Of a stretch of 19,161 nucleotides of DNA, positions 50 through 6,805 are shown in pieces (the stretch's first letter is position 1; each line of letters begins with the position of its first letter). The notes under the pieces are model-generated. The model was not told where the DNA came from, did not search any database, and saw nothing but the letters and a program-made list of their open reading frames with translations. The translations under genes and the position numbers were made by a program. This DNA is from Candidatus Hydrothermarchaeota archaeon. Its GTDB lineage: Archaea; CAYFZR01. The stretch is from the NCBI GenBank assembly GCA_046760505.1, contig JBHIEG010000029.1:1-19161 (forward strand), given 5' to 3'.

Positions 50-748
50 TCATATGTCTTCCGGAGCAATACTATCGGAAGAGCATTTCTTCGTGGATTT
101 TTCAAAAAACTCTTCAATGCCGCATTTGATTCTTTTGAAAAGTTCTTCTCTGTCAACTTCAGTTCTAACACAACCGTCTTTTGATAACATCACGCCTTGG
201 ACTGCGAAACCCTTTTGAGAGGCCTTCATCATCGCCATGTTCAACTCTTCATGACAAGCAACTCCTAAAGTGGCGGATGGCCTGTACTGTTTCAGTATGC
301 GCCATACGAATGTTGAACCGGGAACCACAAAGACCTTGTAACCATGAGCTTCTGCTTCCTTTTTTATATTGGGTACGATGCATCTACCACAGCCTTGACA
401 TTCGATACCTGTGGGTGTGAGTTTAGCAGGACAATCAATATGTCTGAGACATTGGGGCAGGAAAAGAACTCTGTTTTTCGGATCGACGTTTTTGAAACTT
501 TCGAAAGAGACTCTGTTTCTAATTTCAATGCCGATTGAGTCTACAATGCTATCATCAATACCAAATCTGGGCACAATTTTTTTTAGAAAGCCATAAAAAG
601 CATCGATTGTAAAAAGTGTGATCCTTGGTAAAATTAGCCAGTCCCTTTTAAACAAAAGAATGATAAAAACAATAGAAATCAAAAATAAAATCACGATGGA
701 AGTTACAAATAATAAAGTAATTGCTCCCAGCAAGGTTATTATGTCCAT
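50..748 (-). CDS. DUF116-family membrane protein with a conserved Cys cluster (CPA...GIECQGCGRC...GVAC); function unknown
   Basis: 232-aa ORF with an N-terminal double TM segment and a C-terminal cysteine-rich domain typical of DUF116. Its ATG directly abuts the TBP stop (TAGATG). Confidence 0.6.
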   Translation of the reverse strand: MDIITLLGAITLLFVTSIVILFLISIVFIILLFKRDWLILPRITLFTIDAFYGFLKKIVPRFGIDDSIVDSIGIEIRNRVSFESFKNVDPKNRVLFLPQCLRHIDCPAKLTPTGIECQGCGRCIVPNIKKEAEAHGYKVFVVPGSTFVWRILKQYRPSATLGVACHEELNMAMMKASQKGFAVQGVMLSKDGCVRTEVDREELFKRIKCGIEEFFEKSTKKCSSDSIAPEDI

Positions 749-1285
749 CTACATCAGTCCTAGTCCTTTTAGTTCTTCTATTACTTTTTGTACGGCTCTC
801 TCAGCATCTTCTGGCTTCTTTGCTCCGGTACATACGAGTTTACCCGATCCGAATAGGAGAACAACAACCTTAGGATCTTTTAATCTGTAAACCAAGCCGG
901 GAAATTGCTCTGGTTCGTATTCAACATTTTCCAGCCCGAAACCTATCGCTATGGCATCTAGATTCAATTCCGTATTCAAGTCTGCAGAAGCAACCATATT
1001 CTGAATTACTATTTCGGGCTCTGTGGTGATCTCTACGCCTGCTTCGTTTATCTGAGCGATGGTTTTTTCAATTGCCCTACGTACATCTTCAATGCTTTTA
1101 GCGCCAGTGCACACCAACTTGCCGGAACCAAAGATCAGAGTAGCAGTTTTAGGATCTTTTAATCTGTAAACCAAGCCGGGAAATTGCTCTGGTTCGTATT
1201 CAGCATTTTCCAATGCTAGAGCTATCGTCTCTAAGTCTAGTTCCTTTTCTAGTGACGTGGATGCGACAACATTTTCTATCTTTAT
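749..1285 (-). CDS. tbp: TATA-box binding protein (TBP), two imperfect repeats; probable non-canonical ATA start
   Basis: The translation holds both TBP repeats (IKIENVVAS...EYEPEQFPGLVYRLKDPK...LIFGSGKLVCTGAKS twice). The ORF track starts at TTG 1213, but conserved TBP N-terminal residues are encoded in frame upstream to the stop at 1313-1315. The frame has no ATG, GTG or TTG. ATA at 1283-1285 lies 10 nt after GGAGG (1296-1300). Confidence 0.85.
   Translation of the reverse strand: MKIENVVASTSLEKELDLETIALALENAEYEPEQFPGLVYRLKDPKTATLIFGSGKLVCTGAKSIEDVRRAIEKTIAQINEAGVEITTEPEIVIQNMVASADLNTELNLDAIAIGFGLENVEYEPEQFPGLVYRLKDPKVVVLLFGSGKLVCTGAKKPEDAERAVQKVIEELKGLGLM
870..933. repeat. Intragenic direct repeat copy A inside tbp (repeat-2 segment ENVEYEPEQFPGLVYRLKDPK)
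   Basis: 64 nt are identical except one base to 1149-1212. The offset is 279 bp, which is 93 codons and equals the TBP repeat period. Confidence 0.9.
1149..1212. repeat. Intragenic direct repeat copy B inside tbp (repeat-1 segment ENAEYEPEQFPGLVYRLKDPK)
   Basis: 63 of 64 nt match 870-933 (ttaggatcttttaatctgtaaaccaagccgggaaattgctctggttcgtattca...). Confidence 0.9.
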
Positions 1286-1333
1286 CAGAGGAAAACCTCC
1301 GTTAGGCTGTAACTATAACTCAATGGATGTTTC

Positions 1334-1343
1334 TATATATAAA
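1334..1343 (-). promoter_or_regulatory. TATA box (TTTATATATA on minus strand) for tbp
   Basis: Archaeal TTTAWATA-type element about 48 nt upstream of the proposed ATA start. It is followed by GGAGG at 1296-1300, giving a leader of about 25 nt. Confidence 0.55.
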
Positions 1344-4394: not shown

Positions 4395-5915
4395 ATGGAA
4401 AAAATTACCGTGATGGACACCACGATGAGAGACGGTGAACAGACCCCTGGAATAGCGTTCACACCAGAAGAGAAAGCAATGCTGGGAAGGATGTTATATA
4501 ATGCTGGTGTGGACTTCATAGAGGTTGCCAGTGCCCAAGTATCTGGGGGAGAAAAATCTGGAGCCATAGCGGTAGTTAAAGAATTCGAGGAACATGGATA
4601 CCCAACCGATATTCTAGAGTGTCTCACCTACCTCACAAAAGAATCTGTAGACTGGGCTCACGATACCGGGGTTGGTGGTGTAAATATCCTTGCAAAATCT
4701 TCTGTGGAGCAAATAGAGAAACAGTTGAGAATGAAACCAGAAGATCAAACAAATCTGGTCTTAGATATAGTGGAGTATGCATATGATCTTGATATGAAGG
4801 TAAATCTATATTTGGAGCACTTTTCCAGTAAAGGAGGTGTAAAGGATACACCAGAATACGCAGATACCTTGATAAATGAATTACTACAAACAAAAAAGAT
4901 GCAAAGAATAACTTTCTGTGATACGCTCGGGTTATTCGATCCCGATGAAGTAAAAAGATACGTTGGCAAATTTGTGAAAAAATATCCAAAAGCTTTCTTT
5001 GATTTCCATGGACACAACGACTACGGCATGGCTGTTGCCAATACGCTGGAAGCGGTCAGAGTTCAATGTAAAGGAGTGCAGGTCACGGTTAACGGTCTTG
5101 GAGAAAGGACTGGCAACGCTCCCTTAGAGGAAGTTATAGTTGCAATACACGATAAGACTGATAAAAAGACAAATGTAAAAGAATACATGCTCAAAGAATT
5201 ATCAAGTCTGGTGGAACGTAGTTCTGGGGTAAGAATACCTCAAAATAAACCGATAGTTGGAAAATACGCCTTCACTCACAAATCAGGTATTCATGTAGAC
5301 GGTATGAGCAAAGCCAAATTATACGAGAGCATAGATCCTAGCAGATTTGGAAGAAGGCACGAGTACGATCTAGGAAAACATAGCGGAAAGGCAACTATCA
5401 GATCTCATCTGGAAGAAATGGGTATAAAACCAACTGATAAACTTATTGAGGGTATACTAAAGAGAGTGAAAGAATATGGAGACATGAAAAAAGTTTTGTC
5501 TTCTGAAGATTTACCCTACATAATTGCTGATCTCATGGAGGCACCTGAGGACATAAGAATAGAAATAGAAGACTGTGCAATTGTCACTGCCTTAGGAACT
5601 CATCCAGTGGCAACTGTAAGCATAAAAAGGAACGGAAAGATTTACAAGACAACCGGCTCCGGCGTGGGAGGATACGATGCCTTCATGAATGCGATCAGGA
5701 GTTTATTCAAAGAGGAACTCCCAAAACTGGTTGATTACGAAGTGACAATACCCCCAGGGGGCAAAACAGACGCTTTAGTTTATACTACCATTACATGGGA
5801 AGACAAGGACGGAAACGTGTTCAAAACAATCGGTGTGAGTCCTGATCAAACTTTTGCAGCGATAGAAGCCACAAAAAAAATGTTGAATCGGTTTTATAGA
5901 AATAAGAAAACATGA
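4395..5915 (+). CDS. leuA: 2-isopropylmalate synthase / (R)-citramalate synthase family (LeuA/CimA) with C-terminal regulatory domain
   Basis: 506 aa with DTTMRDGEQ and HGHNDYGMAVANTLEAV signatures of the DRE-TIM metallolyase family. It has a C-terminal LeuA-dimer-like region of about 130 aa. Confidence 0.8.
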   Translation: MEKITVMDTTMRDGEQTPGIAFTPEEKAMLGRMLYNAGVDFIEVASAQVSGGEKSGAIAVVKEFEEHGYPTDILECLTYLTKESVDWAHDTGVGGVNILAKSSVEQIEKQLRMKPEDQTNLVLDIVEYAYDLDMKVNLYLEHFSSKGGVKDTPEYADTLINELLQTKKMQRITFCDTLGLFDPDEVKRYVGKFVKKYPKAFFDFHGHNDYGMAVANTLEAVRVQCKGVQVTVNGLGERTGNAPLEEVIVAIHDKTDKKTNVKEYMLKELSSLVERSSGVRIPQNKPIVGKYAFTHKSGIHVDGMSKAKLYESIDPSRFGRRHEYDLGKHSGKATIRSHLEEMGIKPTDKLIEGILKRVKEYGDMKKVLSSEDLPYIIADLMEAPEDIRIEIEDCAIVTALGTHPVATVSIKRNGKIYKTTGSGVGGYDAFMNAIRSLFKEELPKLVDYEVTIPPGGKTDALVYTTITWEDKDGNVFKTIGVSPDQTFAAIEATKKMLNRFYRNKKT

Positions 5916-6016: not shown

Positions 6017-6805
6017 ATGCCTAATGGGATTTTCGGATTATTTTCAGGAGTTTTTCCCATTGTAGTAATCTTAATACTATTTATTCTTTATTCTGCAATA
6101 AGAATCGTAAAGGAATACGAAAGAGGGGTAGTTTTCAGGTTAGGAAGATTAATGGGGGCTAGAGGTCCTGGACTGTTTTTCCTAATACCCATAGTTGAGA
6201 AGATGGTGAAAATAGATCTAAGAACCATTACGTTGGATGTCCCATCTCAGGATGTGATTACAAGAGATAACGTTCCAGTTAGAGTAAACGCAGTGGTTTA
6301 CTTTAGAGTAGTAGAGCCTGAAAAGGCAATAGTAGAAGTGGAAAACTACATGGCCGCCACTTCTCAAATATCTCAAACTACACTGAGAAGTGTAATTGGT
6401 CAGGTCGAACTAGACGAGGTACTTTCTGAGAGAGAGAAGTTGAATCGCACGCTACAGCAAATTATAGATTCTCAAACAGATCCATGGGGTATTAAGGTAA
6501 CCACAGTAGAGATAAAGGATGTAGAACTACCTGAAGGAATGAAAAGAGCAATGGCAAAACAGGCGGAAGCAGAAAGAGACAGGAGAGGTAGAATAATCTT
6601 AGCCGACGGTGAGGCGCAAGCCGCAGAAAAACTTAGAGCAGCGGCTGAAATTCTCTCAGAGAGCCCTGCTTCGATACAACTGAGATTCTTGCAGACATTG
6701 GCAGAAATATCAGCAGAAAAAACTTCCACAGTAGTGTTTCCCCTACCGATAGAGTTTATGGAGGCATTCCATTCCCCTGAAAAGAAGAAAGGTTCAAAAA
6801 AATAA
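6017..6805 (+). CDS. SPFH/band-7 stomatin-like membrane protein
   Basis: N-terminal TM helix followed by a stomatin core (VVFRLGRL...[22 protein letters not shown]...) and a Glu/Ala-rich coiled-coil tail. ATG 6017 with GGAGG 8 nt upstream is preferred over the track's GTG 6008. Confidence 0.85.

Follow-up and report, generated by a model that had tools for sequence, protein, structure and literature searches.

[quoted passage not shown] The closest described counterparts of the locus reported here are the UUG-to-CUG start switches of Belinky, Rogozin and Koonin (2017, PMC5622118), which are documented but rare, accounting for 1 of 2,468 reconstructed ancestral UUG starts. [quoted passage not shown] Measured with reporters in E. 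coli, CUG and AUA fall in the same class, at ~1-2% of AUG (10.1101/063800). Archaea naturally tolerate first-position mismatches (GUG, UUG), while aIF1 rejects AUU in Sulfolobus (PMC4705826), and in Haloferax ribosome profiling placed ~30% of putative alternative initiation sites at near-cognate codons, which were not analysed further there (PMC7261190). Our literature searches returned no validated archaeal CUG start, and nothing specific on the start codons of the TATA-box-binding protein (TBP).

The locus described here differs from the documented switches in that the gene encodes a general transcription factor, the TBP of an archaeon, and in that the same pairing recurs in at least two independent sister pairs. 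We propose, with a probability of roughly 0.6, that translation of this tbp gene starts at a CTG by weak near-cognate initiation from a SD sequence, and that the ATA following it, which had been taken for the start, is the isoleucine codon at position 2.

The tbp locus, its relatives and the extent of the coding sequence

The window (the whole stretch of DNA that was analysed, 19,161 nt of contig JBHIEG010000029.1 of an uncultured, metagenome-assembled Candidatus Hydrothermarchaeota archaeon) carries tbp on its minus strand (Table 1). A profile search with PF00352 recovered two tandem TBP repeats over the whole protein (223 bits, E=2e-67), and by this two-repeat architecture the product is an archaeal TATA-box-binding protein, 70-75% identical to those of Thermoplasmata and Methanomassiliicoccales. 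It shares the full architecture of these two-repeat saddle proteins, including the usual very short N-terminus ahead of IKIENVVAS, and departs from the known type in its start codon only.

Table 1. Coordinates of features at and around tbp in the window
Feature	Position	Strand	Remarks
DUF116 gene	50..748	minus	ATG directly abuts tbp stop (ATG TAG ATG, 746-751)
tbp CDS as proposed	749..1288	minus	CTG start, TAG stop, 179 codons, product MIKIENVVAS...GLGLM
tbp stop TAG	751-749	minus	
TTG, first canonical start-type codon in frame	1211..1213	minus	read as Leu codon 26
ATA, start in the original prediction and in NCBI	1283..1285	minus	here read as Ile codon 2
CTG, proposed near-cognate start codon	1286..1288	minus	directly 5' of ATA
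Predicted hairpin CGGAGG-UUUU-CCUCUG	1286..1301	minus	6-bp stem, pairs SD with spacer and CUG
Shine-Dalgarno GGAGG	1296..1300	minus	extended context ACGGAGGT
In-frame TAG closing the tbp frame upstream	1313..1315	minus	
Archaeal TATA box TTTATATA	1336..1343	minus	~50 nt upstream of ATA; AAACC immediately upstream is a possible BRE
GalT-like upstream gene	1347-2456	minus	annotated as 351 aa from GTG 2402, without SD, in window and relatives

On the coding strand the frame reads TAG(1315-1313) TTA CAG CCT AAC GGA GGT TTT CCT CTG ATA AAG ATA GAA AAT GTT GTC GCA. Between the upstream TAG, which leaves 8 open codons upstream, and the TTG at 1213-1211, 24 codons on from the ATA at 1285, it holds no ATG, GTG or TTG. 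The original prediction had drawn attention to this lack of a canonical start for the conserved N-terminus, and its reading of the frame is borne out here, as are its positions for the upstream TAG, the TATA box and the ATA 10 nt after GGAGG. The PF00352 match to repeat 1 starts at residue 10 of the stop-to-stop translation and spans profile positions 2-84 of 85; repeat 1 therefore takes in the residues encoded ahead of TTG 1213, and a start at that codon would remove the first strand and helix region of the repeat. The deposited record MFQ6051875.1, 'MAG: TATA-box-binding protein [Candidatus Hydrothermarchaeota archaeon]', is a protein of 178 aa that begins MKIENVV and starts at the ATA, so that the earlier proposal of an ATA start was not new. 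An exact-sequence look-up gave no match for either the 178-aa product from ATA or the 154-aa product from TTG 1213.

Two contigs of related genomes were available for comparison, JABAOF010013113 of GCA_012974965.1 (L001) and CAYFZR010000007 of GCA_964347835.1 (L002); they are identical in this region, and the comparison thus covers one related population. Both encode the same TBP (P0121, 179 aa, MIKIENVV...), which falls in the same 90% cluster as that of the window, and the gene order LeuA-like, glycogen synthase, GalT-like, tbp, DUF116 is common to all three. Nucleotide identity between the tbp genes of the window and L001, counted over the 180 codons between CTG/TTG and stop, is 86%. Seventy-six codons differ, 75 of them being synonymous or start/stop differences and 1 non-synonymous (R164K), and codons 2-25 contribute 9 synonymous and 0 non-synonymous differences. 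This pattern indicates that the N-terminal segment ahead of TTG 1213 is translated and under purifying selection, and together with the profile match it upholds the earlier claim that a start at TTG 1213 would cost about 24 conserved residues of repeat 1. TTG 1213 itself is TTA in both relatives and on that account is read as a plain leucine codon. With an intact gene, translation of the first 24-25 codons and no canonical start to serve them, initiation must take place at a non-canonical codon. Four other genes shared with L002 have an identical canonical start in both genomes (ATG, ATG, GTG, ATG), and the odd start is therefore specific to tbp.

Searches for further close relatives or an outgroup did not extend this comparison. 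A scan of metagenome contigs with the pattern xTG-ATH-AAR-ATH-GAR-AAY... gave 64 loci with no further close relative and no outgroup among them; apart from the L001 contig, every one came from an unrelated lineage whose tbp starts with a canonical ATG ('ATG GCA GTG ATA AAG', MAVIKIEN). A TBP search of genome contigs returned proteins of 61-74% identity among the matches listed, close relatives not being among them, and a search by way of the GalT-like upstream neighbour reached only next relatives of ~50% identity, in which tbp is not adjacent.

Several features of the neighbourhood may be recorded here. The GalT-like gene has close relatives (79% identity) in only two genomes, the next matches being at ~50%, and its first ATG (2456) would give a protein of 369 aa. 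Downstream, the stop of tbp and the start of the DUF116 gene abut in L002 as well (ATG TAA ATG, 5498-5503), which suggests a conserved tbp-DUF116 operon; given this gapless abutment in both genomes, DUF116 is probably co-transcribed with tbp and translationally coupled to it. In L001 the DUF116 gene was called as two pieces (162 and 66 aa) and is possibly frameshifted there. Within tbp, a 53-nt stretch is identical at the DNA level between the two TBP repeats (1149-1201 and 870-922, minus strand), with counterparts at 5076-5141 and 5355-5420 in L001, and species-specific synonymous variants (TAC/TAT, CCC/CCT, GTT/GTA, AAA/AAG) match between both repeats within each genome. To judge from these variants, the repeats evolve in concert, in the manner expected of intragenic gene conversion. 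Two Logan contigs, L003 and L004, break at the TBP repeat.

Proposed placement of the start at CTG and the competing explanations

The signals upstream of tbp are shared with the relatives. The window and L001/L002 have exactly the same TATA region, CTTATAAACCTTTATATATA, and the SD sequence AACGGAGGT is likewise conserved, within an untranslated region whose flanks have diverged. From the usual archaeal spacing of -26/-27 between TATA box and transcription start, transcription would begin near 1313-1311, giving a leader of ~25 nt. The GGAGG lies 7 nt from the CTG and 10 nt from the ATA. The four other GGAGG-led genes of the window (starts at 6017, 6903, 15414 and 16079) have spacings of 8, 7, 7 and 8 nt, and the TTG start of tbp in L001/L002 stands 8 nt after its SD. 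Scans for Rfam families, tRNAs and terminators gave no relevant match.

In both genomes a short upstream ORF runs into the start of tbp, its TGA overlapping it as YTGATA (4978-5004 in L001 and 1323-1285 on the minus strand of the window). In L001 it begins with an ATG ~3 nt past the predicted transcription start (MLKRRSFF*). We rejected it as a conserved feature: its start is ATG in L001 and TTG in the window, and the latter falls upstream of the predicted transcription start. The ORF is probably due to chance.

The alignment of the two tbp starts bears directly on the choice of codon. Where the relatives read ...AAACGGAGGTCTTTTTTTTGATAAAGATAGAAAAC, the window reads ...TAACGGAGGT-TTTCCTCTGATAAAGATAGAAAAT, and its CTG falls exactly in the column of the relatives' TTG start, with ATA as codon 2 in the window, L001 and L002 alike. 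A 1-nt indel between the window and L001, immediately after GGAGGT, breaks the frame upstream, and coding of tbp therefore begins at or just after the CTG codon. By the criterion of orthology to a canonical start at an SD-compatible spacing, CTG classes as a near-cognate start and ATA does not. This in-frame CTG had been overlooked in the original prediction, which gave non-canonical initiation at ATA as one of its two explanations. The first half of that explanation, non-canonical initiation, gains from the purifying selection and from an identical second assembly (see below); the second half, the ATA, loses to a CTG that aligns with the relatives' TTG at a 7-nt spacing. The alignment of orthologous loci that it had recommended does show the ATA to be kept in relatives, but as codon 2 behind a TTG start.

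The proposed steps of initiation are as follows. The window and its relatives differ at the start codon by one T/C transition (CTG vs TTG), to which we assign no direction. An mRNA with a leader of ~25 nt would be made from the conserved TATA promoter, the 30S subunit would dock on the GGAGG, and the CUG lying 7 nt downstream would be placed in the P site, where initiator Met-tRNA would pair with its second and third positions and tolerate a mismatch at the first, as it does with GUG and UUG, both in routine use in archaea (PMC4705826). A protein beginning Met-Ile-Lys-Ile-Glu-Asn... would result, in smaller amounts than a UUG would give. The compared sequences show the conserved promoter and SD, the purifying selection and a coding boundary in the column of the CTG; we infer the docking of the 30S subunit, the CUG in the P site and the pairing of Met-tRNA.

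The most serious competitor is that ATA is after all the real or main start, read by initiator tRNA with a third-position mismatch, as AUU is in bacterial infC. We consider this doubtful, yet several observations speak for it. The NCBI product MFQ6051875.1 starts MKIEN at this codon. A predicted stem that buries the CUG (see below) leaves the ATA just outside on its 3' side, where it would be the more accessible of the two, and third-position near-cognate starts seem to occur in other tbp genes, in the form of an ATT conserved in three loci (L026, L029, L078). A spacing of 10 nt from the SD is still within the workable range in bacteria. Moreover, AUA and CUG perform about equally poorly in E. 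coli (10.1101/063800), and codon identity alone therefore does not favour CTG. Against an ATA start, the same codon is codon 2 in the TTG-starting relatives, so that nothing marks it as a start; the 10-nt spacing is outside the 7-8 nt of the GGAGG-led genes in the window; and aIF1 discriminates against AUU in Sulfolobus (PMC4705826). A further database start at ATA, that of tbp in L151, stands 16 nt from its SD with a CTG at 7 nt, which suggests that the annotation method, rather than biology, is behind such calls. On balance we retain CTG as the likelier start, and the ATA start of the NCBI record is probably misplaced by one codon.

A second explanation, already raised alongside the ATA start, is that a point mutation or an error of sequencing produced the anomaly; applied to the CTG, it would hold that the population really carries TTG, the C at 1288 being either a minor variant or a mistake of the consensus or the assembly, and that there is nothing unusual to explain. 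The source is indeed a metagenome-assembled genome, and a single base separates CTG from the relatives' TTG. However, a contig assembled independently by Logan from run SRR29324583 (L004) matches the window base for base from the TATA box past CTG ATA and on into the coding region, which makes an assembly error unlikely. It is one of four Logan contigs carrying the exact protein of the upstream neighbour, and it reaches into tbp; a contig from a second run, SRR29324586 (L003), holds the 3' part of tbp and DUF116. Compared with L001, the 9-nt spacer contains two more T-to-C differences and the indel, and 14% of tbp positions are not the same in the two genomes; the CTG/TTG difference is thus a matter of ordinary divergence. 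A CTG is also found in three other tbp lineages, in one of them in both NCBI and Logan assemblies. With purifying selection across the gene in addition, we regard an error as highly improbable.

It is equally hard to credit that tbp became a pseudogene recently through loss of its start, or that only a shortened protein is made from TTG 1213 while another copy does the work: many archaea do carry several tbp genes and a canonical start is absent, but the gene is free of frameshifts and stops, its 75 synonymous or start/stop differences stand against 1 non-synonymous one (9 against 0 upstream of TTG 1213), and its promoter and SD are conserved. TTG 1213 was also rejected as a start in its own right, having no SD and being TTA in relatives, and a protein beginning at residue 26 would fall short of part of repeat 1.

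Start codons of tbp in other archaea

Start codons were surveyed at 80 species-representative tbp loci among the matches listed, drawn from Thermoplasmatota, Halobacteriota and related groups, with the N-terminus anchored by tblastn. In these 80 loci (tbp only), the start nearest to the IEN motif was ATG in 55, TTG in 14 and GTG in 6, and no canonical codon was found in the remaining 5 (L030, L046, L026, L029 and L078).

A CTG occupies the ancestral position of the tbp start, behind an SD of equivalent spacing, in three further lineages (L151, L152/L153 and L030). In a Thermoplasmata MAG (L151, ~292-303; protein P0019) the sequence reads GGAGGAATTCTA CTG GCA AAA ATA AAA ATC GAG. The protein is the NCBI 'MKIEN' TBP, annotated as starting at an ATA 16 nt from the SD, while the CTG lies at GGAGG-N7, in the position where relatives read M/L-AKIKIEN; the annotated ATA looks like a systematic mis-call. 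A JGI contig 95% identical to it (L154, ~301-303) has GGAGGAATTACA TTG GCG AAA ATA AAA, with the TTG again at GGAGG-N7. By this comparison the two form a second, independent TTG/CTG pair at a tbp start, unrelated to that of the window. The second lineage, present in both NCBI and Logan assemblies (P0044; L152/L153, ~292-303), reads GGAGGAAGAGCT CTG GCA AAG ATG AAA with a GGAGG-N7 spacing, and thus has, three codons after the CTG at the ancestral start position, a true ATG as well. In the third, RBG_19FT_COMBO_69_17 (L030, ~2729-2731), the sequence is GGA GCG GTT TCT CTG GCC AAG ATC AGG with a spacing of GGAG-N8, and a canonical start is absent across 100 open codons upstream.

The other loci of the survey lacking a canonical codon are of different kinds. 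In three tbp genes of Methanomassiliicoccales an ATT stands in the place of the start (0-based, L026 2488-2490, L029 2488-2490, L078 2494-2496), preceded at 5 or 7 nt by an SD-like GGTG or GAGG, and the products would read ISKYKIEN or ISEYCIQN. One of these genes is on a closed chromosome (OY968769.1), and the ATT has been kept among species that lie far apart, though the leaders have diverged; it looks like a conserved start. The last (L046, ~1075 of VBMN01000021.1) has TCG where relatives start with ATG or TTG (SAKFKIEN), behind the SD GGTGGTG, and the 29 open codons upstream hold no canonical start. Either this soil MAG of low coverage is in error here or a further start has been lost.

A predicted hairpin over the start, and the supply of TBP

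In the window, the spacer between SD and start is predicted to pair with the SD itself. RNAfold gives the hairpin (Table 1) a centroid structure of -8.4 kcal/mol at 37 C, with the SD predicted to be free of pairing at a probability of 0.01 at 37 C, 0.11 at 70 C and ~0.45 at 85 C, as against 0.1-0.9 per SD base at 37 C in the relatives; the SD of tbp is predicted to be the least accessible of 12 gene starts in the window. Compared with a U in the same place, the C of the CUG would add ~2.7-2.9 kcal/mol. On the other hand, the 70-nt region has a z-score of -0.13 and is not unusually stable, and the hairpin is not conserved in L001/L002, where the spacer is U-rich and the SD accessible, and it has no covariation support. 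Set against the U-run of the relatives, T-to-C differences and a 1-nt deletion give the window the spacer CCUCUG, complementary to CGGAGG, and so create the predicted hairpin. In its short stem pairing the SD and start codon, which is predicted to open only above ~70-85 C, the predicted structure resembles SD-sequestering hairpins and RNA thermometers of the fourU and ROSE types; it differs from them in being a prediction only, absent in a related genome. The predicted hairpin, the sole hint of a translational throttle, is compatible with such a throttle or with a thermometer, while being no evidence for one.

A broader conjecture, extending the possible throttle of the original prediction, is that several archaeal lineages hold tbp purposely on weak starts, throttling TBP or tying its synthesis to temperature or to initiation-factor activity. 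It is prompted by the TTG at 14 of the 80 tbp loci among the matches listed, by the CTG in the window, L030, L151 and L152, by the apparently conserved ATT in three Methanomassiliicoccales, and by the predicted hairpin over SD and CUG in the window; we think it improbable. Were it true, the downstream coupled DUF116 would be throttled along with tbp. The model behind the idea is infC of E. coli, which encodes IF3 and starts with AUU, and in which a core factor of gene expression is likewise placed on a poor, non-canonical start. In infC, however, the unusual codon is kept among relatives and the gene's own product senses it, whereas the codon of tbp in the window is not conserved, being TTG in the relatives, and other tbp lineages carry ATG, GTG or TTG. 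We know of no role of TBP in start-codon discrimination. The resemblance to infC is therefore superficial, and no feedback loop is evident.

From the perspective of annotation, the deposited record and at least one other MAG record (P0019) start TBP at an ATA, and gene callers of the Prodigal type would start the tbp of the window at Leu26, while comparison puts the start at CTG. The gene is among the clearer comparative cases for tolerance of a CUG start on an SD-led archaeal mRNA, in a gene that is presumably essential. The near-cognate start of an otherwise ordinary TBP is a rare event of an already known kind, as would be any single TTG/CTG start difference taken alone. The recurrent CTG, together with the apparently conserved ATT of the Methanomassiliicoccales, raises the question of whether the dosage of TBP in these archaea may be set at translation initiation.
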